DNA of 62,343 nt, counting the filler, from Dirinaria sp. TL-2023a (lineage: Eukaryota), in NCBI GenBank assembly GCA_051941275.1. It is 7 parts of 7 records of this genome, joined end to end, with 100 filler letters (N's around TTAATTAATTAA, not from the genome) between each part and the next. Parts side by side here need not be neighbours in the genome. Positions count along the whole stretch, not along the records: positions 35,749 to 44,562 come from JAVEBF010001138.1; 6 more parts are not named here. One strand, written 5' to 3'. The position numbers were made by a program, and so were the translations under genes. The notes below the pieces were generated by a model that was not told the origin of the DNA, ran no database searches, and was given only the letters and a program-made list of their open reading frames with translations. This document shows, piece after piece, positions 8,846 through 53,554 of this stretch. Each line of letters opens with the position of its first letter. The first letter of the stretch is position 1.

Positions 8846-8945
8846 NNNNNNNNNNNNNNNNNNNNNNNNNNNNNNNNNNNNNNNNNNNNTTAATTAATTA
8901 ANNNNNNNNNNNNNNNNNNNNNNNNNNNNNNNNNNNNNNNNNNNN
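8846..8945. other. Artificial contig linker N44-TTAATTAATTAA-N44
   Basis: Six-frame stop 12-mer inside N runs; six identical copies in the window. Confidence 0.97.
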
Positions 8946-10976
8946 TGATTGGATTTGGGGGAGGGCAAGCGGTTGGAAGGGTGGGGAGGCAGATCGGTAG
9001 TCACCAAACCCCCCCCCTGTGCGGCATCATCTTAGCACGAGTGCTGCTGCTTAGCCTTCAAGTCCTTCCGTTGTTCCTGCATGATCTCCGACTCGCTCCA
9101 TTTTTAGCCCCTTTAGCACTCGGTACTCTCATACTCTATCCTGAAGATCCTCGAGCATGTTATGTCTCCGTACCTTGCCGATGGCAGATCGTAATAATCG
9201 TCTGAAGAACCGAGTAGCGGAAGCGGAGGGAAGGATCTCAAACTTTTGATATCCCGACCAAAGTCCAGAGGAATCCCGGTTGTGATCGCATCAGGGTAAG
9301 GATTAATTTGAAAGCTTAAGGATTTCTGTTTTTAAAGGGACAGCTTGTACACAATTGAAGGTACCGTACCTTGAGGTACCTTACCTCCTTATCTACAGGT
9401 ACTTGTACCTTACCCATATTAGGGTTGCCGAGCCTAGTATAGACTTGTATATCGAGTCCCTCGGTCTGCTTGCGTAGACCACTGGTCCGCTCGGAGCTAT
9501 CCTATGTCAGTGGTAATATTACCTTCATACGATTGAGCGTCCGATCTCTTGGTGGAAGCACTGATTACCTTAATATTGTTGGAACAATTCAAGAGCTTCG
9601 CCACGAGAATTCCTACATGCGCCACAGAAGGAGTTTTTCGGGAAGATTTCCAGACATGTTGGATTTGGTGGAAGGGAAATGTTTGATCCATCGACTGACC
9701 CGGATTCGTCGAATCCTTCCCATTCCATGACACGTCAAAAGTTTGTTCGCAAGCAGACTCGTGCAACATCTTTCCATTAGACTTTTTGATATCTGCAAAG
9801 GGAAAAGTCCATCGGATACGATCTCGAACATGTTATGCCCGCCTATGCCTCTGGCTACGTACAAGGTTTCGATCGGTTTTACCATAGATAAAAGCTAAAG
9901 AAAAAAGCTATCAGCAGGTCCCATGAGGACGGGAGACCAAATTCGTTCAATCTAGCAAACCTACTCACTTTTCCGTAGAAATCGTACAGACATGGAATTT
10001 CTTCATCTCGCCTCGCTTGTCCACCGACATTATCTTTCTCCAGAAGTGCTGTCAATCCGCAACGCCCGAATTCCTAATACTTGATGACCTGGATCAGGCG
10101 CTTAAAACCGCTCAAGGCGCCGATTCAAAACTCTTTACAAATACTTCTAATATCTACCTCTAGTACTCTCCTATGCGCTCTTCAAGAGCCTTTTTCGAAT
10201 AAGAAATTCCCCGAGCTCCTTAAAAAATCGTCGAAAATCATCCGATACCTCACCAGCAATGCCGTAGCAACAACAACAACGACAGACATCCCAAAAGAGC
10301 AAAGAACTTTGTAAGCTTTGTAATGGTGAGTGAGTAGACCGTCTTTACCCAAATTCAAAAAGCGATATAGCATCTAATCCCCCCCCTCATCTGGCCCAAG
10401 AGGGCGGAAGCGGCATCCTTTGGTGCAGTGGAACCCATACTGTTCGAAACGTGTAGATGACCTGCGTCAGATCGGTGCTAGTTGGTTGCAGTGAGGTAGA
10501 TGGAAGGTATGTGCAGTGACAATGATTGGGTTGGGATGGTCACGTAGTAAGGTACAGAGTGGGATGGGTGCGGTGAGGATTGTGGGAGTGGCTGTGGTGG
10601 CTAAGGCAGCTACTCGGACTCGCACGGGTGCCCGGGAGTAAGCCAGATGTGCACTGTCCCGAAGCAACTCCGTGCCCCTATGAACTACATAACTTCCGGC
10701 ATATGTTTTATTTGAGAGCAGGGAAAAGGCCAGGGAACAAAGAAATTGGATTTCACGAGCAAGACACGCGCGACGGATATGATGAGACGCATAATTAATC
10801 ATAGAAAATTTACCCCAGTGTTTGGCTGTAAGTGATTTATTAATTTGCTACGTACATATTTAATGCATGGATAATCCTCGCTGGCTATGCATTACACAAA
10901 TTTCCCCAACTCCCTACAGATGCAGATGAGTATTAGTGTAGTGTACAAGCTCTCTCCGACCTAAAGACCAAACTTT

Positions 10977-11708
10977 CTATTCAATCGTAATCTTCTTCTC
11001 CGCCCTGACAGCTTTCGGCACGATGACGGAGAGAATGCCATTCTTGAGGCTGGCCTTGACAGATTCCTGGTCGACCCGGCCTGGGAATTCGAAGCGACGC
11101 TGGAATTCACCGACTGATCGTTCGCTGACCCAATACTTGTAATCTGGCTCGGCGGACTTCGGCGCCACGGAAGGTTCTGATGCTGAGGCGACCTGAGCGG
11201 TAGCGGTGGTAGGAGGGTTCGGTTCTTCAGAACCTTTAGCTGCTTCGCCAGCATCGACGTAGTCGTCTTCGACCGATGGCTTCTGGTAGGAAGAAGCGGA
11301 CTTCTCCGAGGCGTCGTCAGCGGTAGCAGGCTCAGAGGCTGCTGGCTGTTCAAGGGGTTTCGTTTCTTGGTTGGATGAGCTCTTGTGGGTCTCGGTCTTG
11401 CCCCGGATGACTAGAGTGTTGGCATCCACAAACTCGATATCGATGTCCTCTTGTTTGATGCCTGGTAGTTCGCCGTGGAGTTCGTAGTTGGATCCAACCT
11501 CCCTGACATCAAAGCGCGGAACGAAGCTTCTTGGTTGAGAGCGCTGCAGAACAAATGGGTCTGCGGCATCTAGGAGGCGGAAGAATGGCGCGAAGTCATT
11601 AGAGGGAAAGCGAGGGAAAAAGCTGGTCATTGCGCGGACTGGCACCGAGGAGAGATTTGCTGGTCGGCACACAGCGCGAGGTAGACAAGTGGCTGTCCGA
11701 TAAGACAT
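10977..11708 (-). CDS. Small heat-shock protein (HSP20/alpha-crystallin, Hsp30-like)
   Basis: FVPRFDVRE..YELHGELPGI, ERSVGEFQRRFEFP and ASLKNGILSVIVPK. Second in-frame ATG at 11630 (MTSFFPRF). Confidence 0.95.
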   Translation of the reverse strand: MSYRTATCLPRAVCRPANLSSVPVRAMTSFFPRFPSNDFAPFFRLLDAADPFVLQRSQPRSFVPRFDVREVGSNYELHGELPGIKQEDIDIEFVDANTLVIRGKTETHKSSSNQETKPLEQPAASEPATADDASEKSASSYQKPSVEDDYVDAGEAAKGSEEPNPPTTATAQVASASEPSVAPKSAEPDYKYWVSERSVGEFQRRFEFPGRVDQESVKASLKNGILSVIVPKAVRAEKKITIE

Positions 11709-11882
11709 GGCTGACTTTGGATCTGTAAAGATGGTTTCGTCTGTTAAGAGCGTAGTGTGTGTTTGTTGAGAAGATGTGAGTAAGTTCTTTTTGAGAGAGA
11801 GTTGATATCGTGTGGAGCAGGTATTGTACTCGAGGTTGTTTCTTTTGAATGATGGAGAAGCAAGTGAGGAAGTTCAAGGAGA

Positions 11883-11890
11883 TATTTATA
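11883..11890 (-). promoter_or_regulatory. TATA box of the small HSP gene
   Basis: TATAAATA on the minus strand ~175 nt upstream of ATG 11708. Confidence 0.65.
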
Positions 11891-11977
11891 CTAGAGCTCG
11901 ACACAGACGAGAGGAGTCTCGCACTTTCCAGAGCTTAGGAATACAGGTGTCTTCGTAATCCTTGGAATTGCTCCCTA

Positions 11978-12046
11978 GCAGTTTCTAGGGCTTTCTCGCC
12001 ACCTCCGGTTAGTGCTAGAAGCTACGGCAAGCTTCTAGATCCTTCC
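11978..12046. promoter_or_regulatory. Degenerate heat-shock element array
   Basis: GAA-gc-TAC-gg-CAA-gc-TTC-ta-GAT-cc-TTC at 12018-12045. TTC also at 11983 and 11993 in the same 10-bp phase. Lies upstream of an HSP20 gene. Confidence 0.6.
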
Positions 12047-12723
12047 GCGCAGAAACTCATCAACATTGGTGGCAACGATGTTAGTAAAGGTTTGGAAATT
12101 TGCATGAGAATGAGAAGACTCGCTCTAATATGAGCAGCACATATGTGATGGAAAGCGATACGTATTTGATGCGCGATTGTAACGAAAGTAGTTGAATGGT
12201 GGTGGTCCAGGTGGCCTGGGTTCAGCAAACAACGAGATGATAATACTTCAAACCTACCGGAGCTGTCTCGGGGAAGTTTCCCTGCTGAGATTGCGTGCTG
12301 GCCATAGTTGAGGTTCTATTCTATTCTTCCTAAAGCGCTTCGTGGTACCAGGCATACTCGGAATTAGGAGTGTATAGAAGAAGAACAGTTGACGAACCTC
12401 GCGAGACTACTAAGTAATGTAGACTACGAGGCTACCAAGCTTGCCAAGCGAGCCAAGCTACCAATTACCCGAAGATTTCCCACCGCTCCGCACATTGAGC
12501 ACGCTAGGAGGCTAGCTAGCGGACCGAGAGCCTCTACTGCCGCTGATTGGCGCTTCACCAAGCCGTGCCCGAAAAGTTTCACTCAATTGATGTCAATGCT
12601 CAGATCTCGCCCACTCAAGCCCAAGGTCTTCCAGTTCCAGAATACATACGGTACCTATAGAAAATTTTCTGGAGTTATACCACTACTCCCCATGCAGCTC
12701 CAAATCCCTTTCCGCCTTCCACT

Positions 12724-15700
12724 ATGTCGATCATACGACTCAAAGTGAAAGTCTTGCCTTGGCGAAATCCAATCACGTCAATTGGGAGCGCGTCGCGTCA
12801 AGAAGACATCAAAACCTGGATTGAACCCTGTGCGGAGGATGTCACGATCTCAGCGCTTCATGAGCGCATTCTCGATAGCTTCGCTGATCTTCACGGGGGC
12901 AAGGGGTGCGTATCTGAGCCTTGGCTTGGACTGACTGACTGCTAAGGGGTTCCCGTGCGACAGTGAACTTTGTATTAAATGGCTTGAGGATGACGATGGG
13001 AACGCTCTGCGAGGCCACCTGAGAGTTGGCGAAGCTTTCAGAGAGTCGCGCGAAATTTCTGATAGGACTGTCAAAGTCGTTCGCTTGCCACCGACCGAGA
13101 AAGATTTAAGCAACCCGGAACGATTCGCGTCCATCGCACCCGAATCGACCGCTCGCCCACAAAAGCGCACACAATTTCAGGAGCAAATTGTACGCAATAG
13201 CCTGCTTGACCTTGTCAGCGCGGAGGATTGGTCTGTACGTGCGCCTCGGGATGGCTATGAACGCCCGTACAAGCGGCAAAGAACAGGTGAAGTTGGTTCA
13301 GGAGGTAACCACGACCGTGATCAGCCGTTACCGTCAAGCGAAGGGGTAGACGAAGTCATCTATCAAAGATCTGGACTGCGGAATAGCCAACGTGCGCCTG
13401 TCCATCAAGTTGATGACTCCCAACGATCACCGGCAAGGAAACGTTTGTACTCCTTTGGTGTCTTGAGACTGAGCTAACCTGACACAGAGCATAATCCGTA
13501 TGGCACCCCCACTTCTCTCACCGTTTACAGTCCTCTGAACCCAGTCTCCTCCAGTCAGCCCCAAATAATTCCAGAGTCGCCAGAGCAAAGGGGGCTCAAC
13601 CACAATGTAGAGCCCACAACTGGAATCTTCGTTTACGATAGACCCAAATCCGAATCTCCCGAGTTGGTACCCTCTGTCCATGAATTTCCGTCTTCTAGCG
13701 CAGTCACTGGGACGAGCGTGACAAGCACACAGCAACGCACTGAGCAAGATCCTACTGCACGTTCTATAGTACAAGACGCCGCACGGGAGAATAATGCAGA
13801 TACGTTAAGCGGAGAGCGCATAGAAAAGGCTGGGCCGGTGGACCTACAAGGGCCCAAAGCTCCATCCGTGGAACTTCGACAGTCCCCTTTTGCTGGGCAT
13901 TCTTCATCCAAACAAGGACCCCTTGGCAATGAAAAGACTCTAACGGAGTTGCGAAGACGAATCTCGAACCCACCTGATCCCATAGAAAGCGACGCAGACG
14001 TTCCGCAGGAGCATCAGCACGCTCGCAATGACGAGCAACCCCAAGTTCCTCAACCGCCCGTACGTATTGCAGTATCCGGGATAATCTTGTCGCCTTCACA
14101 CTCTAATAGCCCTATACGCGATGATGTCTTAGGCGGAACGTCATTATCAGAGATTGGGGACAAGCCGTCACAAGGCCCACAACTATTAAATGGGGGCGAC
14201 AAAAGCGCTTCAGCCATTAAACCCTTGCACTCTTATTCAAGTGCCGCTGGTACAAAGCCGGAATCTACCATAGTTACTCCAAGCGTCACAAATGTGCAGC
14301 CGGCGTCACAAGAATCTAACGTCGTCGACCTTGAAGAGGATATCGAGGAGCAGAGTGACATTATCTTGAGCTGTGGTAGTATGGCAAAGCAAGAACGTCA
14401 GCCTCATAGGAGTGAGCCAGCTCATGGATTCTCAGCAGTCAATACAGACAGTACCGCGCCTAATGAAGCCGACACTGAACGGCTTCAGCAGAGCTCTGAA
14501 GGAAATCATCCGCTGACTCAACTGGCATCTACTGTACAGGAGGAGAATACACTGTCGCAAGAGCAGAGGAAGGCTCATTCAGGAGTCTCAAGTGCAAAGA
14601 CGTTGGAGCGCGAGAGAAGCTTGGAAGCACGTACAGACAGGAAACGTAAAGCTCTAACAGAGCCCACCAAGTCAGACCTCAAACCGTCACCAGAGGAGTC
14701 ATCGAATATGAAACATCCCTCAAGTCGCGACGATAATTACCTGGCTAATGAAGAAGAACTTGCTGTAACAAGTAGGTCGGCTGGGGCAACTCGGGAGCCG
14801 AAGGATAGCGAGCTAGATGCTTTCAACGTCCCAGACTCAGAGCCGGATGCTAATCCTCCAAAGTCAAAATTGACCAAGCGCGCTGTTAGCAAGAAAGTCG
14901 AAAAGTCGGTAGCACAGTCAAAATCGGAAGCTGATCGGCAAACGCTCGAGCAGGAAAAGCGAGATCTAAAGAATGCTCGGGCAAGGCAGCGCAGAGCTGA
15001 GAAGAAGGCTCAATTGGCGAAAAGCACCGACCTCGAGAAACGTAACACTGCCGAGGTCGTTGATGACCAGCCAGACGATGAAATCCGAGAGACGTCGACG
15101 AGAAGTACTACCAAGAAGAGAAGAGTCACTGAATCGGAGGCTGTAGAGGAACCGAGCAATAAAAGCAGCAGGCTATCCAGAGGAACAGCTGGTCGAAAAG
15201 CAATTGCCGGTAAGACGGCTAGTCAACCAGAGTCTGTGGAAAGTCAGTCAGACCAGGAAATTCATGAGCTATCAAAGAGAGATAGTACGAAGAAGAAACG
15301 AGTCGCTGATACGCAGGCTGCACAAGAAACGAAAAATGGTGGCAAGAACCTATCTGAAGGAAAACCCGGTCGAAAAGCGATAGCCGGTAAAGCGGCTAAC
15401 CAACAAGCCGAGGGGACGACGGATGAAGCTGAGACAATCGCTTTGGGATTGAGTAGTGGCCAGCGACATGGTTCCAAAACCCCAGCCAGGACAGGGCTCC
15501 AATTGAAGGCAGGCGCTGGTTCAGCAAGTGGAGCCGTGCAAAAGATCCGCGAGTCCGCCGACACTGAAAGTACACGATCCTCGTCACACAGTAATCGCCA
15601 TAAGGCCTCTGCTACAAGAAGATCTATGACCCCGATGTTCCCAGCATCATCGGCGGCGAAGCCAATCAAGAGCGCTTTGCGCACGAGCGAGAGCGGCAAC

Positions 15701-17785: not shown

Positions 17786-17885
17786 NNNNNNNNNNNNNNN
17801 NNNNNNNNNNNNNNNNNNNNNNNNNNNNNTTAATTAATTAANNNNNNNNNNNNNNNNNNNNNNNNNNNNNNNNNNNNNNNNNNNN
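17786..17885. other. Artificial contig linker
   Basis: N44-TTAATTAATTAA-N44. Confidence 0.97.
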
Positions 17886-26718: not shown

Positions 26719-26818
26719 NNNNNNNNNNNNNNNNNNNNNNNNNNNNNNNNNNNNNNNNNNNNTTAATTAATTAANNNNNNNNNNNNNNNNNNNNNNNNNN
26801 NNNNNNNNNNNNNNNNNN
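26719..26818. other. Artificial contig linker
   Basis: N44-TTAATTAATTAA-N44. Confidence 0.97.
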
Positions 26819-38071: not shown

Positions 38072-39844
38072 TTATTCATACATTGTCGAGCTCAACGTCA
38101 CAACCACATATTTTGTCGCCCCATCTTCGTCCTTACATGGGGTCCAGTGCGTGAAGAACTTATCGTCGCCGCGTCGAGCGAGCGATCGAAGGGTGAAGAG
38201 CTGGATGCTGGCAGAAATTGCCAAGCCATGCTTCAACGCATCCTTGACCTTGGATTTGTATTCCCGGGGCAGAGAGGTGGTATGCTGGGCTAGGAATTTG
38301 AAGATGTTGTTGCCGACGAACTCTTGGCTGGCGGAATTGGTGATACCGAGGACGTCAGAAATCCCAATGGAATAGAACTGGATCGTGAAATCCGAGTATC
38401 TAATGACGAGATACTGCGCAGCATTAACAAGCTACCTCGGTGCAAATAGATATGTATGTACCTTTGAGTATGCGGTGTAAAAAGCTTCCATCTGTGTCCG
38501 GAAATTCATCTTCTCGATTTTCTTGAGTAGTCCTTGCTCCATTCCCGCCTCTCGACCAACCTCTACCTTTTTCGTACTGGTCGGCATTGATGGTGTGGTC
38601 TCTTTCTTGGTGAATCCGAAGAAGCTTCTTTTGGAAGATTTAGGACCAGAGGTTGATGGTGAGCCGTCTTTTTCATCATCTGCATCGTCGGACGCAGACA
38701 GTATACGGAGAACATCTGTATTGCTTCGAATTGTCGTTGAACAATTGATCTGTCCGCCAATATAGAACGCCAACCGACCTGTGGCGTCCAGTAGTGGTGC
38801 TACGACAAATCAGCCATGCAGTGGGGGGGTATTGTAGCTCTTGATTTGAGAACTCACCAACGTAAAGCAGATTCCAGAAGGGCTCTCCGTTCTTTTTGTA
38901 GTTCAAGAGCAGCTCCACTGTTTCTTCCCTTGCTTCGATGGAGGCTTTTAGCCGTTTGGTAGCAGTTCGGTCTGTGTAGCTCCCTTGCAAGAAACGACAG
39001 TTGCGCGGTACGACCTCGCTCCTTGAGTAGCCAGTAACATTCACAAACCCGTCAGAAGCGTATACGATGGGGTTATCTGCTTTTCTAGCCAATCATCAGC
39101 TTTGTCATAGTTCCGAAGCGCATAATGCGCAGGTCCCCTTACGCAGGATCAGTTAGGCAGAAGCAGTCCCCAAGGCCCTGGTACCTGCTGCGATCGGACG
39201 AAAGTGCCTTAGATGCACTGTTCGTCATCTGATACTTGACGAACCGGGGATAGATGGAAGACCTTAGAATATTTTCGACACCCTCTTGAGCTTCTGCAAA
39301 GATCGATTCCATCGCAGGCAAGGTTGATGTGGTGCTTGCTTTTATATCCGCGTTGATTCTCTTGAGCATATTGGTCGAAATACCTAGCTGCTGCGGACTT
39401 TCCGTCGATGTGTATGAGCGATTGATGTCGGTCATAATGGTCATCAGTTCATCTAAGAGCGCACTGTAGCGGTCTACCTGTAAATTTGTATATTGGTCAG
39501 TGGTCATATCAGGGCATGAAGCCTGAGAGCGCTGCTCGTACTTTCTCCAGGAATTCCATGTTTTCGCCGCACATTCGAGCCTGACAGAACTTGGCCAATC
39601 GATGCGCAGTGGTAGGATTGTGGAGGACGATCTGAAAGACCTCGGAGCTGAAGAAGTCGGCGAGTCCATTGGGCGTTCGATCTAGCCCGGCTTGATGCTT
39701 GGGACTGGAGAATGAGGAGGGAGGTGGATTGTAGTTGCGCGAGACATCACCATTGGCGTACTGGCCATACCCGTTGGCATTTTCCAGAGCCTGGCCATTG
39801 CGATTCTCCGCATTGCGAACCACGAGTGACATGTCGCCGTTCAT
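38072..39844 (-). CDS. RGS-LOV blue-light photoreceptor (BcLOV4-like: RGS, LOV, C-terminal PAS-like/DUF)
   Basis: RGS-like FCQARMCGENMEFLEKV..IYPRFVK. LOV motifs GLGDCFCLTDP, NPIVYASDGF, PRNCRFLQG, LLNYKKNGEPFWNLL and FYIGGQIN. Polybasic KRSFFGFTKK. Last exon ends ..STMYE*. Confidence 0.9.
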
Positions 39845-40758
39845 CCTTTGGTGGCGAGAAGGCCGTCTCGCATTATTGACGGGGTGGTAGAGAAGAAAGG
39901 GGACAACAGATCAACGACAAGCGATGGTCGTACGCTGGACGCGTGCTACCTACACGGAACAGGTAGTCATTGAGTAGAGAGTGCACTAAATTGCCAGTCT
40001 ACCCGTAACTGGATCTGCAGGTTGGGTGATTTCGCATCTGGATGCCGTCCCGGCAGAAATTCCCTGTCGAGCGTGTCTAGCCTTGGATGTTGACGGACAT
40101 AACTCCTGGGAGCCAATCACCGAACTTCATAGGCTCGCGAATCTTAGAGGCATACGCACGATACGATGATGATCGGAGATGATGGCACGATGCGTCCTGC
40201 CCTTCTAGCGACGTTGCTAAGTAGCTAGACCCCGCCATGGTGCCGCGCAAGATCTGCCACTTGCTCATTACGGGCTCGTCAGCGTCGCCCGGTCTTGTTC
40301 CATGGCGCTCTTCAGAGCTCGAATCCGCTGCTACCACGGCACAGGGAAAAAAAATCTAATCGTAAACGACCCAAACTCAGAGTACCTTAGATTTCGCCTG
40401 TCCATGTTTACTCTCTCTACCCTACTCTACTTTCAACCCCGACCATACTTTGTCACTTTCATTTCCATTCTTGACTACGCCCTTGAAGGTATCCCCAACT
40501 CCATGCACAGCGTAGACTTTTCGCCTACTTTCTCTGGCCCTTCCACCACGGCGTTAGTTCATTCGATGTATCCCACACTTTAGACTCCCTCTTCTCAGAC
40601 TTCTGATTCTTTCTACCTTTCGGGCCTTCCTTGTATTTTCCGGCTTTTGCCTTCTCACTGATTTATGAGCTCCCGTTGCTACGTTCAGCAATCTCAAGTT
40701 GTCTGAAATCCTAGCCTTTGGCTCATCTTCTGTGTGCTTGGATATACAATCGTTGAGG

Positions 40759-43613
40759 ATGGCTGAAGAATCTAGCGTGCAGAGCATTGATGATGCTCGA
40801 GTGAAGGAAGTCGAAGACGCTTATGGGGACGAGTTTAACATGGGAAGCGACGACGGCTCGTCCTCCACTGACTCCGTACCTTCCAAAGACATCTACTATA
40901 GCCCTCATCCACGGACTGCACAATCTGGATTCGTCGTAAAACTAGACGCGTGGGTCCTCCTTTTCTTTTCTCGATCCTCTATGCTCATTGCTATGAACAA
41001 ATGCTCATTGCGGAGATTGCATTGCAGGCATCATGCCGTGGACAGCACCCCACCTGTCCAGCCAATAACACCAGCGTCCGAACCACACAAAACCGAACCA
41101 TACGAGACCGAACCATACGAGACCGAACCATTCAAGACCGAACCCTACGAGACCGAACCATACAAGACTGAACCATACGAGACCGAGCCATACAAGACTG
41201 AAAAATACGAGACCGAACCCTATGAAACCGAACCATACGGAACCGAAGAGCCGCCTCCACTGTCCCCAATCGAAGAATTAGATGATGATTTGCTCCATCA
41301 GCCAAAACCGCGACCCCGGTCTGGGGCGGCAGCCTCGATCGCTTCGGTCAGAGAAGAGTCTCAAGAGGGTGTCTCCCTTGAGCAGCAATCAGAGCTACTT
41401 TTTTCCCGCCAACACCTAGAACTCATACTTACCGACCCGCAATTGTCCTCGCGTTTTACCAGCTTTTTACGGACCTACCGTCCTGATTCAGTACCGATCC
41501 TGGTCTATCTGCTGGACGCCGTCAAGGCACTCAAAGCTATCAAATATGCGGAGGCAATCATTAGTGGCCTCGAACCGGTAGCTGGGTACGATTTCACCAA
41601 AGAGGTAACAGGCGCAACAATGAGTTGGGTAATTGATGACAAAGCCGAAAGGGCGATGGAGGTCCTTGCGAAAGACGACCTTCCGGCATTCATCGCTTAC
41701 GTCTACGTGCGAACTGTCGACCTGGCCTTGGTAGATAGGGTAACAAGGCGAGACTATCATGATCATTGCAATTTTGCAGACGGCTTAGCCGAGGTTTTTG
41801 TTCTCTCGGACCCTGCGCAGGAAGATAATCCGATCGTTTTCGCTTCTGAAGGTGTGACACTGCAAACTCTCATTCTAGATGTGAGGATCTGACGCCTGCT
41901 AGAGTTCCACGAGATGACCCAATACCCTCGGAGTTATGCCCTTGGCCGCAATTGCCGCTTCTTGGGAGGACCTAGGACAGATTTGTGTGGGATAACGCGA
42001 TTCCGAGCATCGTTGGATGCCGAGCGCGAGCACTGCGAGGTGCTGTTGAACTAGTAAGCATTCTCGTTCTCTTACAGATTCTCCTGATATTTGACTAAAA
42101 CCCGCGATAGCCGCAGGGACGGTACACCATTCATCAACCTCATTATGTGCGTGCCTTTGAGGGACCAGTATGGTAGAGTGAGGTACTTCCTTGGAGCTCA
42201 GCTTGATATCACCGAGCTGGTGAGAAACTGCACGGAGCTCGAGTCACTGCGAAAACTAGTAGAACAACGAAGAAAACAACTGGAAAAGTCTGAGGGCGGT
42301 AACGTTCCACTAGAGATGCCGCAAACTGACGCATTTGAACAACTCGGTGAAACCTTTAACTCACGCGAGCTTGAAGTACTTTTGAATTTAAGACTTCGGC
42401 TCAATCCAGACCCAGCAAAGAAAAAGGGTTCTGAATTCAACATCGGATCTGAGCGGTTTCCAATGCCACCCAAAAAATCATCATCAAACCTAAATAATAT
42501 CTTCCAGCTCAATGGGCAAGGCAGCGCTCCTCCATTGGGATTTTATCAGAACGTTGGTTAATTGAATTGCCTAACGTCGTTCATTTTGCTGACATCTTAT
42601 AGTATTTGCTAGTTAGACCGCATCCATCTCTTCGTATTTTGTTCGCCTCTCCTGACTTGCGAGTCCCCGGAATATTGCAAGCTCCACTCTTGAGTCAACT
42701 TGGTGGCAGTCAAAGGGTCCGCGAAGATCTTGAACAAGCTCTTGAGGTTGGCAGGAAGGTCACTGCGAAAGTACAATGGCTGTCCAAATCGGCACAGACT
42801 GCCCCGTCGAAATGGATTCACTGCACTCCACTGCTCGGAATTAATGGGCTTATTGCGGTATGGATGGTCATTCTTGTGGATGATGTCCAAGTAGAAGAAA
42901 AACAGCGAGCTCCAGTACCGGTTAAACAGCATCTCCCCAATGAGATGGGTGCCCGGACAACGGAAGCACTACCTTGGGATAAGGCAGCTGCACCAGGTCT
43001 ATCAGGCACGATAACCAACGGGTTTGGAGAGGGTTCTGGCTCGTCCAACACAAGCCAGGCTGCGCCATCACGCGAAGGCTCCAGGAAATTGAATGATCCT
43101 ACACCTCCAATACCGGAGCGGAATCGCTTAAGGAAGGAACCGCAAACCAGCGCGCGACGACCATCAGATGGTACCAAAAACGCCACAGTCACACCCTTTT
43201 CAACAAAGATGGACTCGCGCTATAGAGTCAAGGTCTGGAGTGGAGCTGAAGGTGAGAAAGAAGTACAAACCACGGAAGAAAATGCAAGATCTAGGGCTTG
43301 GCAACCAAGATTCGGACAGCCGCCGGATATTGCTGGTACTGCAGTCAGACCTGGCCCAAGGATTAACGGCAGAACATATTCTTTCAACTCAAACAGCGAA
43401 CATGGCATCTCAGTAGATGACGAACACACAAACGGATCTATCGGCAGCGACAGACCAACAAGCCAAGGCAGTTCTATTGCGCCATCCCGAGGCACTGGGA
43501 GTATTACGCCGGGAAGTATAACTTCGAAGTTGCAGAACGGAGCTGACGGTAGGCCGTTTACCCGGAGGACATACAAGTCTTTGTCGCCATACGGAATGCT
43601 GTTCGAGGATTAG
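40759..43613 (+). CDS. Second RGS-LOV-PAS protein (different subfamily), multi-exon
   Basis: LLFSRQHLELIL..FTSFL..DAVKALKAIKYA (RGS-like). LOV motifs GLAEVFVLSDP..DNPIVFASE, GRNCRFLGGP, NYRRDGTPFINL and YFLGAQLDIT. Then YLLVRPHPSLRILFASP..WIHCTPL and C-terminal RRTYKSLSPYGMLF. Confidence 0.85.
41080..41244 (+). repeat. Coding minisatellite, 11 x 15 nt (EPY[E/K]T)
   Basis: GAACCATACGAGACC variants encoding EPHKT EPYET EPYET EPFKT EPYET EPYKT EPYET EPYKT EKYET EPYET EPYGT. Confidence 0.95.
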
Positions 43614-44082
43614 CTCACGGCTGATATTTAACATCTTGCCTTTTATCTGCTCAAGTCTAAGCTCTGCATCGAAATCAACGGCGTCATGTGTTTTGCCAGC
43701 AAGGATACCCGCATTTTGCTGTTTTTATTTTTGCATACTTTGTCGAAGTATTGGTCTATTGTACACACAAAATTTAACGAATGATGAATTGAAAACTTTA
43801 TAATCTCCTTGTCAAACGAGGCCGCATGTATCAGATTGAAATAACGCAAAGAACTCAAGTACGCAAGTACTCGTAGCACCAGAGAGCTTTGAGAAGTTCA
43901 GCGTCCAGCAACAACGATGACGAAAGCCCGAAAAGGTCCTCAATTACTGCAATCCCGGTCAAAGGGACCAGGCCGACCAACCCAGGTCTTTGTAACTCAC
44001 ATCACATTCTCATTATTTTCCAAGGTAAATGGCATGATAGTAGAGAAAGATGGGAAAAGGCATAGACTCAATATGTAGCCAG

Positions 44083-44219
44083 TACTCTTATTCACCTACT
44101 TTCTTGGTAGTTTTAGGGTTAAACCACTAAGAACTCCATAACCCTAAGTAGGGTAGGGTTGGAAGAACTCTGGTGGTGGGTAACCCTAACCCTACCAAGA
44201 AAGTAGGTGAATACGAGTA
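44083..44219. mobile_element. Putative Tc1/mariner-type MITE/foldback element, 137 bp including flanking TA
   Basis: 44083-44110 (TACTCTTATTCACCTACTTTCTTGGTAG) matches the reverse complement of 44192-44219 at 27/28. TA at both ends; no ORF. Confidence 0.7.
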
Positions 44220-44562
44220 GATTAAAAGGAAGAGGAGGTTTGACACGAATACCTTAAGATACTGTTGATTACTGCTGCAAAATACCTATCACCACACCAA
44301 CTTATTCTAAGATCTAGTATTCATTGATTGTGTCAAACTCTTATATATTTTATAATTGAGGAGAAGATTGGCACATTCGGCCATAGGCAACTGAAAAATG
44401 AGGATCCCGTCCGCTTTCCACCCATAACCAGTTGACCGGTCAATTAGTAGTTGGGTCGGTGACGACCAGCGAATCCTGGCTGCTGAATGTATGGTTTTCT
44501 TGTTTTTTTTTTTTAATTTTTGAATTTTTTGGGGATTAGAAGGCTTTTTAAAGAGATGGAGC

Positions 44563-44662
44563 NNNNNNNNNNNNNNNNNNNNNNNNNNNNNNNNNNNNNN
44601 NNNNNNTTAATTAATTAANNNNNNNNNNNNNNNNNNNNNNNNNNNNNNNNNNNNNNNNNNNN
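44563..44662. other. Artificial contig linker
   Basis: N44-TTAATTAATTAA-N44. Confidence 0.97.
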
Positions 44663-45226: not shown

Positions 45227-46554
45227 TCATAGCATAACCGCGGATACAGCCAACAAAACTAGGATGGCCTTGAGCCATGCTGGTTCTTCGGCGGCTGTGG
45301 AACCTGCATTGCGTGACCTAATGAATGTGACGTTTTGCAGCTCCGCCAGCACCTGCGGCGGCACAGCGCCCGTAGCGGCCAGCTGTCGGAGTTCGTTTCC
45401 CAAGGTATTCAGGATATTGGAGGAGCGGCCGGAAGGGCAGAAGACGACTTCGAAGCCGCCGCCGGAGGGAATAATGAAGGTTGATGTCTGGTCATCGAAC
45501 GCTAGGAAGAGCAAAAAATGCATTGTCAGTGAGGGTCTTATCCTGATGGATAATTTCAATGTGAAAAAGAACGGGCTTTACCATAACTATACGCATCAGG
45601 ACAAACTTTCTTGGCCTGGCTGCTGTATTCGCTCGGCTTGCACACGCTTGGATTGTCGTAATGCCCCACACAACAGTCGCTATCCTTGTGATTTTTGGCG
45701 CACGCGGAATAGCAGGGGTCGAAAAGGGGTCGCTGAATTGTGTCATCCGGGTAAGGGTAGACGCCATCACCTGGCTTGCTCGGTGCATCAAGCTGTAAAT
45801 CCCAAGGGCACCAGCTCTGCACAAAATCGTTGCTCACGCTTTCCTCCAGCGGGATTGGAAAAGAGCTATTGGTGCCAAGGTTAGCGTCCGAGGTGTCGCC
45901 TTTGGCTGCCAGCAGCGCGGCGGTGCCGATGCAGATGGGGTTGGTCAGATTGGGTGGGATTTCCGTTAGGGATTTGTTCCCACTTTCGGGATATAGGGAG
46001 ACGATGCCGATCGGAATATTGTAGCCGTCGACGAGGGAGATGTCGTAGAAGGTTTGACCGCTGGACGTGGCGAGAGTGAACTCCGCCAGGGTCGCTGGCG
46101 GTGCGCCTGCGACTTGACATTCGACGACGCCAAAACAGTCGCCGGTGCTGCAGGCGCTGCCACCACCGTTGTTTCCACCCGTGTTGCTCGGCCCCGTCCC
46201 GTCGAAGTTGAAGCTGCAGTTCGTCCGTCCCCACACCCGTCCCTGCCAATCGTGCCCCACCGTCAGATTGCGACTTGAGCCTGGGCTCAGCCCGAATCCT
46301 CGCGTGCCGGGACTCGTCCCAGACTGGGTGGCTATCCCCGGGTAGATTGTTTCCTTGCACTGGTTTGATATCACCAAGGGAACCGTATTGGCGCGTGGGG
46401 CCACCCAGGCGATAGGATCGCGTTTCATGTGGTGCAGAGCGCTTGTCTGAGGGAGGAGGGAAAGTAGGAAGACGAAGTATAGTATTCTTGCTGCAAACCC
46501 AGCTCTTCCGGCGCAAGGGCTTTTTGCGGGGTGGTATAGGGATGCCATAGCCAT
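45227..46554 (-). CDS. Thaumatin-like (PR-5/osmotin) protein with hydrophobic C-terminal anchor, 2 exons
   Basis: WQGRVWGRTNCSF, CSTGDC, PATLAEFTL, FYDISLVDGYN and KVCPDAYSYAFDDQTSTF. Start at 46554 or 46548. Confidence 0.93.
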
Positions 46555-48121
46555 GAGGTAGCGTATTTGTGACCGGTGGAGGAGATATCTGTATTGGACG
46601 TGATGTAGTAGCTTGACTTGATCGTCGGCTTGCAATTGAAGGATCGCGAGAGTGTCGTAAGGTCATGAAGTTTCCAAAGAGGTGTATCCAGGTTGAAACT
46701 TGCCAGGGATACTCAGGCGCGTACTCGTACAAAGAGGATGAACCAGCATCACTTTCCGATGTCCCGATTGAGGCAGAGAGCAGTGAATAGCGATACAGAG
46801 GAAGGGAAAGTCAGAAGCGACAAAAAGAGAGGTTGACAAAGAGAGTGTAAGCAATAGAGCCGCTCTGAAGCATTGCAGTGATTGATACTTGATCCATAAT
46901 AAATATCCAGTTCATGAAGTGGAAGTATAAGGGATTACTACTTCAGGTAAAGCGTTCCATATTTGGTTAAGCTTGCCAAGCATCAAATGAGGTGCCTTAT
47001 CGACATCGAGTACCAGGAAATCCTTAATCCGATTCCCACTCCTTACCTGGAAGCCAACGAAACTTCGAAAGAACCAATTTTCAATGTCAACTCCATATCA
47101 GGCCTGTACTTGCATCAAGAGTATTCTGGGAGGTCTCGCTAGACTGGCGTTCCGAACCGTTTCAGATCAAACTTATGACCTTAGCTACCTGCACACCGTT
47201 GAGTAAATAATATCCGATGATCATGTGCAAGATCATGTCTTGGCTTTGACTGTAGGTGAGATGATCAGCAAGCTCTCTCCTGTGTATAGTATTAGGCTGT
47301 TGGTGCCTGCGCAGGCAATCTCAATGTTGGCTCGAACATGGTTTTTCCGCGGACTGCTGAGTTGGCTTTGCGTCGTAAAGAGCCTATTATTACGCTTGAA
47401 TTGGTCACCGACAGGAGAAAAAGCAAATGAAGAGAGTTCAAAGCTCATCTCATTTAGTCCAAGGCGCCAGCGCTTCAATTTATCTGCATAGCTCATTTGC
47501 CCATAGTTGTCAAAGGACTGCTCCAGCGTCCAGCTCCTCGAAGTGTGGAGTCGATGGATCCCCAAGGGCCAACGACCAATATTAAGTTCTCTGCTGTCGC
47601 TGTCCTTGTCTCTCCTCGTCTGTCCCGTTGAACTAGTGCTCTTTCGGATGCAGGTTTCCAGCTTGATGCCGCTCTTTCCTGCGCAGTTGAGGGCGAGGCT
47701 CCTTGGACGGGATCGCCATCTTCGAGCCACTGTTCACAGATAGCATCAGCACTAGCGCTACGTAAAATTTGGTTCACCACCTGACCGCGTGTGATGGTGT
47801 GCCGCTCAATTTGCTCAAACTTCGAAAGGACTCTAATGTGCGCTAGTTGCCACCGCTAGCAACGCAGGGTCTGAGCTCATATGCATTCCCAGATGCAGCC
47901 TTGGTAAATTTGATATTTATTTTACATACCTATGTATCATCTAGCACCAACATCGAAGTCCTTTCGCTCTTGTACTTGAAGTATTTACTATTTTCATTAT
48001 TGCTGGTTTCTTCACTCGTCGTCGTTGCCGCCGTCTAGAAGTCGTTCCTTTTCGCCATACTACTCAGTCAATCTCCCAAAGTTGATCTTTTCTTCTTACA
48101 AGCCTCGAAAGAACAGCAGTC

Positions 48122-49565: not shown

Positions 49566-50754
49566 ATGAAGACTGCTCTCTTCGCCGCTGTGGCTTTGGC
49601 TGCCGGTGTTTCTGCTGCTCCGTACAAGTAAATCTACCTCATTCTTGATCCTCGTACGGTTCAGTGCGTCTAATACTTGTTTCCAGCGCGCTCACCGCAC
49701 GTCAAGCAGCAGCCAATGGCCCCACTGATGCTCAAATTTTGAACTATGCTTTGACTTTAGGTATGTCAATCCGGCAGCAACATTCACACATATGCGATAG
49801 TGCTAATCCACCGCCAGAACATCTCGAGGACAAGTTCTACCGTGAAGCTCTTGCCAACTTCTCCGTGTCGGACTTCACTGCTGCTGGCTTCGATGCCTCC
49901 GTGCGCACCAACATTGTGGAAGTCTCTTCGGACGAGAGCACCCATGTCTCGTTCCTCACTTCTGCGCTCACGAAGGCTGGCGCTACCCCAGTAAAGGAGT
50001 GCACCTACAACTTTGGCGTCACGGATGTCAAATCCTTCTTGATGACCGCCTCGGTGCTGGAAGGTGTTGGTGTTAGCGCATACCTTGGCGCAGCTGCCGA
50101 CATCATGAGCAAAAATTACCTCACCGCCGCTGGAAGTATCTTGACCGTCGAGTCAAGGCACTCAGCCTACATCCGCAACGCGGTTGGCGAAAGCCCATTC
50201 CCAACTCCGTTCGATGTCCCTCTCGACTTCGACGAGGTGTACACGTTGGCCGCTCCTTTCATCGTCTCGTGCCCAAGCGACAATCCAGCACTGCCAGTCA
50301 AGGCCTTCCCAACGCTGACTGCTTCCCCTAAAAACCCGAAAAACATCACTACGGGCACTGAGATCACCCTCTTGACTCCCACCTACACGGTCAAGGCGTC
50401 AGATGGCAGCAGCCCTATCTACGCTGCTTTCATTACTGTCACCGGACCAGTCTTCGCTGAGTAGGTTTCCTTATCTAAAGTACTGCATGTAGGGTCCCGC
50501 TGATCTCTTCTGCAGAGCCACTCCCGTTACTGGAGGGTTCACTGTCAAGGTGCCAGCGGCGCCCGAGGGTACTGCACCCATTGCTGGCCAAAGCTACGTT
50601 GTGCTTACCGGCTGCAACACCACAGTCAGCGATGACACTGTCGCCGCTGGGCCAGCTATTGTTGAGGTATGACACTAATTTCTTCTGCGCTATAATATCT
50701 TCAAGCTCGCTAACGAACTTTGGTTAGATCACCAACGCTGCTGGTATGCTATAG
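49566..50754 (+). CDS. rds1: Rds1-like secreted ferritin-fold (Ferritin_2) stress protein, 5 exons
   Basis: Signal peptide, then ILNYALTLEHLE, DESTHVSFL, LEGVGVSAYLGAA, SILTVESRH, GQSYVVL and AGPAIVE. Confidence 0.88.
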
Positions 50755-53454: not shown

Positions 53455-53554
53455 NNNNNNNNNNNNNNNNNNNNNNNNNNNNNNNNNNNNNNNNNNNNTT
53501 AATTAATTAANNNNNNNNNNNNNNNNNNNNNNNNNNNNNNNNNNNNNNNNNNNN
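53455..53554. other. Artificial contig linker
   Basis: N44-TTAATTAATTAA-N44. Confidence 0.97.

Follow-up and report, generated by a model that had tools for sequence, protein, structure and literature searches.

Two LOV-domain genes held head-to-head across many lichen-forming fungi: a BcLOV4-type RGS-LOV gene and a lichen-specific paralog of the LovA/BcLOV3-type family

Why would a lichen fungus carry two different genes for LOV-domain proteins head-to-head on one contig, and has something held them together? The question is raised by a stretch of 62,343 nucleotides (the window) from Dirinaria sp. TL-2023a (assembly GCA_051941275.1), in which seven parts of seven records are joined by paired 44-base runs of N, about 8.9 kb apart (8846-8945, 17786-17885, 26719-26818, 35649-35748, 44563-44662 and 53455-53554) that touch neither gene. 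Both genes lie within positions 35,749-44,562, which are JAVEBF010001138.1, and best matches place the host among the lichen-forming ascomycetes, in the Lecanoromycetes and near Caliciales. Gene A, on the minus strand, encodes an RGS-LOV protein, and gene B, on the plus strand, a LOV protein of another family. We report that two LOV genes are held head-to-head across many lichen-forming fungi. No earlier description of the linkage, of the lichen-specific LOV paralog or of its NCRxLG motif variants was found in the full-text literature, most subscription journals and supplements lying outside the scope of that search, and the part consulted of a paper on light-pulse RNA-seq in lichens has no mention of A or B genes (PMC12212987).

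The divergent pair and its distribution

A and B were modeled manually on stop-to-stop reading frames and intron borders, which are GT..AG in 8/8 introns. A preliminary description of the locus had placed divergent ATGs at 39844 and 40759, an NCRFLQ motif in one product and NCRFLG in the other, and a shared promoter region of about 0.9 kb between them; the models agree on the ATGs and on both motifs, and the ATG-to-ATG spacer measures 914 bp. Gene A aligns end to end with proteins P0125 (96%) and P0121 (93%), and gene B does so with P0001.

Both genes are transcribed and spliced. The search for public runs yielded one DNA run and four RNA runs, all four from the same lichen metatranscriptome sample. 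RNA contigs mapping to 38000-43700 match the window at 95-97% identity, which makes their source a close relative but a different strain. The RNA runs contain only about 19% of sampled words; depth cannot rank genes and uncovered parts prove nothing, and contigs assembled from one sample speak to presence and splicing only, not to levels, strands or transcript ends. Spliced contigs of the relative bridge all eight introns (four in A and four in B), including the 78-nt, in-frame first intron of gene B, which these contigs settled. The preliminary description had treated a silent gene as an argument against its proposal; RNA contigs cover both A and B.

Linkage was surveyed first among named genomes, using the species present in both the A and the B match lists (seven Lecanoromycetes and three Leotiomycetes). 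Consecutive locus tags on the same contig were found in 6/7 Lecanoromycete species, namely Lecanora helva, Heterodermia aff. obscurata, cf. Caloplaca sp. 2, Loekoesia sp. 1, Variospora fuerteventurae and Letrouitia subvulpina; the seventh, Letrouitia sp. 1, has A and B on contigs of only 3.2 and 2.0 kb and is uninformative. The Leotiomycetes Cadophora sp., Hyphodiscus hymeniophilus and Diplocarpon rosae have A and B on different contigs (3/3), with the caveat that some clusters contain more than one member and the listed contig may belong to another of them.

Scanning metagenomes with the A alignment turned up 79 loci, flanked by up to 10 kb, which were searched with 7 A and 10 B proteins. Lichen-type loci, in which A best matches a Lecanoromycete protein, numbered 27 (20 with at least 4 kb upstream), and non-lichen-type loci, with a Leotiomycete, Chaetothyriales or other non-lichen protein as the best match of A, numbered 52 (13 with at least 4 kb upstream). 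An opposite-strand B stands upstream of A in 15 of the 20 lichen-type loci, across a gap of 758-1412 bp in 14 of them and of 5.7 kb in L073. In three more of the 20, and also in L077, B follows A on the same strand at a distance of about 1.8 kb; L079, with only 820 bp of downstream sequence, is a member of this tandem group. L071 has no B within 10 kb, though it falls in the same group as L073 at the threshold of at least 97% nucleotide identity, a grouping that yields eight head-to-head groups, one wide-gap group and one tandem group. Among non-lichen-type loci with at least 4 kb upstream, B was found in 0/13, and it is likewise missing from each of the eight whose flanks reach at least 4 kb in both directions. 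The expectation that orthologs of the two genes would be linked in related fungi thus stands for the Lecanoromycetes (6/7 species; 15/20 loci) and falls for the Leotiomycetes and the non-lichen-type loci.

Two of the variant arrangements can be described further. Comparison of L073 (4085-9790) with L033 (8466-9877) places an insertion of about 4.3 kb between B and A, and together with L071 this marks the pair as structurally variable in that group. In L075-L078, at about 9965-15200, the tandem gene about 1.8 kb downstream of A is a B-family gene that is sister to a Lasallia pustulata protein.

Identity of the two proteins

Judged by its sequence, gene A is an ortholog of the BcLOV4-type RGS-LOV-DUF proteins and so belongs to an already known protein class. 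Our reasoning is that: (i) A has both an RGS and a LOV domain (PF00615 and PAS_9); (ii) it has the flavin-binding cysteine in GXNCRFLQ, and these columns are invariant in 24 sequences; and (iii) the full-length alignment runs through the mixed alpha/beta C-domain (DUF/TSD). A search with exon 2 of gene A returned 154 relatives, nearly all with PF00615 and PF13426, at identities of up to 99-100% in lichen fungi and 47-56% in Mollisia, Sclerotinia and Botryotinia. Invariant columns in the 24-sequence alignment include RGS helices, NCRFLQ, NY..G.PFWN, GGQ, FYTAYSKY and H.TP.K, and homologs from Botryotinia, Sclerotinia and Mollisia align with A over the full length, including an FF..F.KK linker and the C-domain. 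The linker of A, KRSFFGFTKK, aligns with the SFFKSFKKY helix region of the Botrytis-group protein P0237; the aromatic and basic residues are kept, the exact FFK/FKK motifs are not. The class was named RGS-LOV-DUF by Glantz et al., who also described the AH1 helix (PMC6099885, in the part of the text drawn on here), and the portion consulted of a 2025 preprint renames the DUF of RGS-LOV proteins the temperature-sensing domain, TSD (PMC12667789). By analogy with its class, A would bind membranes under the control of light.

Gene B is of a different kind. A search with its exon 2 (274 amino acids) returned 133 relatives of 481-2000 amino acids from five ascomycete classes (Lecanoromycetes, Leotiomycetes, Sordariomycetes, Dothideomycetes and Eurotiomycetes), under names that include 'PAC domain-containing protein', 'white collar' and 'phototropin-2'. 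B aligns over its N-domain, LOV and C-domain with members from Fusarium, Monilinia, Pyricularia and Exophiala at 44-52% identity, and the N-domain exon alone matches proteins of these four at E values of 1e-28 to 1e-43. The family profile matches phototropin and aureochrome LOV chains in the PDB at about 1e-39, and PAS_9 matches 28/29 family members. Fungi have two extra LOV types, one with an RGS domain (LovB, MoRGS5) and one without a recognizable regulatory domain (LovA, 674 amino acids; BcLov3), as set out in the part of the source available to us (PMC10056346). From these alignments we assign B to the LovA/BcLOV3-type LOV family, the match to published names being by description rather than by accession. 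The disordered N-terminus of B contains an array of TEPYE units; RNA contigs of the relative are 60 nt (four units) shorter there and P0001, the nearest database protein, is without the array, and because of this we conclude that the repeat grows and shrinks fast.

The preliminary description had called gene B, like gene A, an RGS-LOV gene, and for gene B this is not borne out at the sequence level. Pfam gave no family for exon 2 of B and no RGS match for any B exon, and 0/29 family members matched RGS at E<=1; what is left is a weak resemblance in fold. The N-domain (modeled from window positions 41368-41850, 161 amino acids, with a 43-row alignment) is confidently predicted to be helical, with a predicted local distance difference test score (pLDDT) above 90 for residues 10-120. 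RGS or RGS-homology chains make up 38 of the 44 Foldseek matches listed (best E 0.25, probability 0.89-0.92), no match reaches E<=1e-3, and all of the structural scores fall in the range common for helical models. Comparison of the N-domain with the RGS region of A by hhalign gave E 0.013 and a probability of 3%, for the first helix only; among the best 60 of 154 PDB matches of the family profile at E<=1 there are LOV/PAS chains only and no RGS chain; and a protein atlas search with the N-domain gave no usable match. In the alignments the GENMEFL of A corresponds to PDSVPIL in B. We think it probable that the modeled N-domain is a degenerate RGS-homology domain. That B might instead be a second genuine RGS-LOV protein, whose RGS domain works and binds G-alpha, is very unlikely in our judgment: it would account for the place of the N-domain ahead of LOV, as RGS is in A, for the predominance of RGS chains among the Foldseek matches listed and for the alignment of the first helices, but it has to contend with the Pfam and PDB results, the low domain-only probability, the unremarkable structural scores and the replaced GENMEFL segment.

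The two genes are nonetheless related. By BLASTP, A and B share 36% identity over 171 amino acids (E 8e-33), from the last N-domain helices through LOV, and because of this we consider them old paralogs and not the products of a recent duplication, as the preliminary description had also held. The full A and B alignments are collinear by hhalign over the entire stretch that spans the RGS region and LOV; the C-domains alone align at E 8e-5 over 91 columns (0.11 and 0.45 in cross-domain controls); and a phase-0 intron lies directly before the Y-L-[LV] that opens the C-domain in both. The AlphaFold2 (AF2) model of the B C-domain (strands E3-7 and E10-15, three helices, then E53-59, E69-78 and E84-93; pLDDT 77) has the arrangement of a PAS fold and matches LOV and PAS chains in Foldseek (E 5e-4, probability 1.00). 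The domain order that had been described as common to the two proteins is therefore real (a helical N-domain, LOV and a PAS-like domain in both), while the assignment of a PAS domain to B only has to be dropped, A having a PAS-like C-domain too (PAS_9 E 0.028).

Within the lichen (Lecanoromycete) sequences the B family splits into two groups, which we call B1 and B2. B1 proteins, such as those of Pseudocyphellaria (P0023), Lecanora helva (P0026), Psora (P0035) and Teloschistes (P0045), are 55-65% identical to non-lichen proteins, have NCRFLQG and end shortly past the PAS domain. B2 (P0001-P0022 and the window) is fast-evolving and forms a clade with an SH-aLRT value of 97 and a stem of 0.6 substitutions per site in a quick IQ-TREE analysis of 54 rows, made without bootstrap and rooted on the long A outgroup, where long-branch attraction is possible and the basal branching is without resolution. 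Lecanora helva has both a linked B2 (P0003, ACLMJK_004174) and a B1 on another contig (P0026, ACLMJK_006669), and for this reason we regard B2 as a paralog rather than a fast-evolving ortholog. Close head-to-head loci that carry B2 are L017, L028, L043, L058, L063 and L066; the B copies of L033/L073 and of L075 (sister to Lasallia P0083) have NCRFLQG forms and sit on separate branches at the poorly resolved base.

B2 is marked by changes in the LOV motif and in the tail. All readable B2 proteins (18/18), the metagenomic loci (6/6) and the window have NCRxLGG, the segment being absent from four gene models; of the remaining 98 family proteins, 86 have NCRFLQG, two have a variant that still ends in QG and in 10 the segment was not found. 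Beyond the PAS domain B2 has a tail of roughly 240 amino acids with PGPRI.G..YSF and a terminal motif of the SPY[GAE].[LI]F type (22/22 B2 proteins and 6/6 B2 loci), a fuller K[SK]LSPY[GA].L[FL] pattern being present in 18/22 proteins; the SPY-type motif was not found in L033, L073 or L075. This B2-only motif can also be written YKSLSPYG.LF[DE]. Its conserved Ser-Pro suggests a phosphorylation or docking site.

Whether B2 is still a photoreceptor depends on how the LOV changes are weighed. The glutamine of the motif has become glycine in 25/25 readable B2 sequences and the phenylalanine position varies (F, L, T, I, V, S). The part of the source we used names the NCRFLQ glutamine as one of the conserved contacts to the ribityl chain and phosphate of flavin mononucleotide (PMC3836802), and because the exchange removes this contact B2 may bind flavin poorly. 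Taken together with the long branch, this could be read as a LOV domain reduced to a light-blind PAS scaffold, with a new role vested in the C-terminal tail. We consider such a loss unlikely. The adduct-forming cysteine is retained in 25/25 sequences; the motif arginine, both asparagines of NY..DG.PF.N and the glutamine of the GAQ[LV]D strand are kept wherever readable; and the gene is intact, spliced and transcribed.

Spacer, flanks and possible common control

Against its nearest loci, L043 and L046, the window spacer is mostly unalignable except for three islands, at 40172-40183, 40094-40119 (CCAATCA plus 19 nt) and 40022-40056. RNA cover of the spacer is near zero only at 40101-40291; gene A contigs extend to 39951-39997, the main gene B contig begins near 40673, and all three islands lie in or beside the RNA-poor center (about 40000-40290), an arrangement in keeping with a compact bidirectional promoter. 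The word TGATTGG, which is a CCAAT box in the direction of B, is present in 6/8 spacers at a relative position of 0.6-0.8, and in those six, the window included, GATC/CGATC clusters precede it by 13-95 nt. We consider the CCAAT box a candidate site for the CCAAT-binding complex and the GAT repeats weak candidate sites for GATA-type (white-collar) factors. A separate RNA contig at 40287-40678 lies upstream of the gene B ATG and contains five upstream ATGs, 0 of them in the gene B frame, one of which opens an upstream open reading frame of 93 codons from 40302.

As a control for synteny, the metagenomic loci were searched with window open reading frames from 24-58 kb and were also compared all against all. 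The only window frame common to other loci is the small cysteine-rich gene at 36229-37410, shared with L043/L046 only. Loci L017, L028, L058, L063 and L066 have in common a gene downstream of A; genes on the B side are common to close locus pairs only; the flanks of L033 and L073 match each other only, and L075 has no match. Flanking genes thus differ from one of these sets to the next (window/L046, L017-L066 and L033), and the pair outlasts its surroundings.

We favor, with moderate confidence, the possibility that A and B2 share a compact bidirectional promoter by which they stay under common control, B2 serving as a second light input or as a modulator. Under this working model blue light would form a flavin-cysteine adduct in A, as homology leads one to expect; the adduct would free the polybasic aromatic linker helix of A from inhibition by the RGS domain; and A would then move to anionic membranes, where its RGS domain could meet G-alpha subunits. 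B2 would still photocycle, with altered flavin handling, since the cysteine and four other flavin contacts are kept. The shared spacer would couple the expression of A and B2, and B2 would modulate or complement A as a specialized second light input. B2 itself has exchanged its motif glutamine for glycine, relaxed the neighboring phenylalanine, lost any RGS signature that Pfam could detect and gained a long tail with its C-terminal motif. We infer the functional coupling, the promoter sharing, the photochemistry of B2 and the membrane recruitment of A.

A number of points weigh against common control. The RNA contigs speak only for presence, in one sample of a relative, and the contig at 40287-40678 may be a long regulated leader of gene B or a separate upstream transcript. 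A k-mer search over the eight spacers found no 8-mer common to at least five of them, and four 7-mers occur in at least six of eight, where 0.93 were expected and the shuffle maximum was also four. The canonical GATCGA was not found in the window spacer, and the GAT-rich element there is only loosely like a light-response element. In two related lineages the linkage takes another form (B in tandem with A in L075-L078, a gap of 5.7 kb in L073), and in L071 B is missing within 10 kb. Conservation within the L017-L066 group may partly be ordinary microsynteny, the gene downstream of A being syntenic there. B2 may also bind flavin poorly, a conserved contact being lost with the motif glutamine. 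There is also contrary precedent for regulation: in Botrytis bclov3 is induced by light through BcWCL1 and bclov4 is not (PMC10218500), and in Fusarium lovA is induced through WcoA and lovB is hardly affected (PMC10056346), each as given in the portions of these papers at hand.

A rival reading takes the adjacency for a passive relic, left over from an ancient inverted duplication or from juxtaposition by chance in a Lecanoromycete ancestor and so far unbroken, with the two genes regulated and acting independently like their relatives in other fungi. Such a relic would explain why the A and B families are unlinked and differently light-regulated in other fungi, why no strong spacer motif is common to all lineages, why some flank synteny persists on the A side within one group, and why orientation has changed in L075-L078 and spacing in L073. 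We nevertheless rate it as rather unlikely, if the most serious of the alternatives. It does not sit easily with the survival of the pair through replacement of both flanks (window/L046 versus L017-L066 versus L033), with the retention of orientation and a 0.76-1.4 kb gap in eight metagenomic groups plus the window, with conserved islands in the RNA-poor center of the spacer, or with the fact that new conserved features arose in the linked copy and not in the unlinked one.

A bolder extension of common control, which we put forward as a quite improbable scenario, is that early in the Lecanoromycetes a LovA/BcLOV3-type copy became locked head-to-head to the RGS-LOV gene and turned into its dedicated partner, with a changed flavin pocket (NCRxLGG), a pseudo-RGS domain and a new C-terminal docking or phosphorylation motif, such that one promoter would deliver the two proteins in fixed proportion to a heteromeric, light-gated (perhaps also temperature-gated) G-protein switch. 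If true, this switch would divide between two proteins what BcLOV4 does by itself, and it might be linked to life with the photosynthetic partner.

The locus matters beyond its own history. BcLOV4-type proteins are widely used as optogenetic tools, and the part of PMC6099885 consulted describes their natural role as unclear, knock-outs having little phenotype and no partner being known (PMC6099885). A paralog kept beside the RGS-LOV gene across a fungal class is a candidate partner and a testable entry to that role, in hosts whose biology depends on light reaching the photobiont. The LOV domain of B2 is, moreover, a natural variant of the near-invariant NCRFLQ with the cysteine kept, and it may show an unusual flavin affinity or photocycle kinetics of practical use. 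If the pair should prove to be independently regulated, the finding would shrink to a lineage-specific paralog and conserved microsynteny. Coordinates of all features, including neighboring genes, are collected in Table 1.

Table 1. Features of the photoreceptor locus and its neighbors, in window coordinates
Feature	Position	Strand	Basis or remark
Gene A, RGS-LOV-DUF/TSD photoreceptor (BcLOV4 ortholog by sequence), 514 aa	38072-39844	-	5 exons; start ATG 39844, stop codon end 38072
Gene A exons	39844-39542, 39477-39143, 39084-38858, 38799-38462, 38413-38072	-	hand-built model
A: RGS domain, aa 61-200, split by intron 39478-39541	39181-39664	-	Pfam PF00615 E 5.3e-8 (exon 2)
A: LOV domain, aa 202-309, two introns	38738-39177	-	PAS_9 E 1.9e-11 (exon 3), invariant motif columns
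A: NCRFLQ	38985-39002	-	motif position; PRNCRFLQG context
A: polybasic aromatic stretch SKRSFFGFTKK	38603-38635	-	alignment columns about 525-537
A: C-terminal DUF/TSD, PAS-like, exon 5	38087-38413	-	weak PAS_9, E 0.028
Divergent intergenic spacer, 914 bp	39845-40758	.	gene models
Third conserved intergenic island	40022-40056	.	invariant columns vs L043/L046
Conserved island with CCAATCA (40113-40119), candidate CCAAT box	40094-40119	.	22 invariant columns vs L043/L046
GAT/GATC-rich repeat GATACGATGATGATCGGAGATGATGG, weak candidate GATA-factor (white-collar-type) site	40163-40187	.	includes island 40172-40183
Gene B, lichen-specific B2 paralog of the LovA/BcLOV3-type LOV family, 872 aa	40759-43613	+	5 exons; start ATG 40759, stop codon end 43613
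Gene B exons	40759-40949, 41028-41851, 41903-42053, 42111-42552, 42603-43613	+	hand-built model
B: 15-nt tandem repeat, TEPYE units, 11.3 copies, disordered N-terminus	41078-41247	+	TRF
B: helical N-domain, aa 180-307	41374-41757	+	RGS-like by model only
B: LOV domain, aa 316-423, two introns	41782-42213	+	family profile vs PDB LOV chains
B: NCRFLG	41950-41967	+	motif position
B: C-terminal PAS domain, aa 537-630	42603-42884	+	AF2 model, Foldseek
B: B2-only PGPRI.G..YSF motif	43347-43391	+	alignment, motif tally
B: B2-specific terminal motif YKSLSPYGMLFED	43572-43610	+	motif tally
Small cysteine-rich gene, leader-like hydrophobic N-terminus, directly downstream of A	36229-37410	-	no Pfam match
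RTA1-like membrane protein	33953-35170	+	not conserved beside the pair in other loci
Thaumatin-family protein	45559-46662	-	not conserved beside the pair in other loci
Ferritin-like domain protein	49649-50461	+	not conserved beside the pair in other loci

Comparison with known systems

The closest relatives of gene A are BcLOV4 and the other RGS-LOV-DUF proteins (also RGS-LOV-TSD; MoRGS5, Fusarium LovB and Verticillium rgs-lov), which have the same succession of parts: a disordered N-terminus, RGS, a single LOV carrying NCRFLQ, a linker of basic and aromatic residues, and a C-domain resembling PAS. Gene A differs from BcLOV4 in its linker, which reads KRSFFGFTKK in place of the FFK/FKK pattern given for BcLOV4 in the text at our disposal (PMC6099885), and in that the lichen RGS-LOV gene stands head-to-head with a LOV paralog. 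The counterparts of gene B, by description, are LovA of Fusarium, BcLOV3 of Botrytis and lov-u of Verticillium; its N-domain, LOV and C-domain align with members of that family, and its length is similar (LovA has 674 amino acids). It differs in being part of a sister lineage confined to lichens and marked by NCRxLGG, a tail of about 240 amino acids and a terminal SPYG.LF.

There is precedent for a pair of LOV proteins that work as sensor and modulator. In Neurospora, WC-1 and VIVID are two LOV proteins, one of which modulates the other through LOV-LOV contact. The parallel has its limits: the genes for WC-1 and VIVID are not neighbors, VIVID, a LOV protein too, is short, and any contact of A with B2 is hypothetical. 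Precedent for the gene arrangement comes from the fungal divergent pairs GAL1-GAL10 and niiA-niaD, which are transcribed from bidirectional promoters, encode steps of one pathway and are proven to be regulated jointly. A and B2 resemble them in standing head-to-head across a spacer of less than 1.5 kb with conserved elements near its center, and differ from them in that joint regulation of A and B2 is at present our working model.

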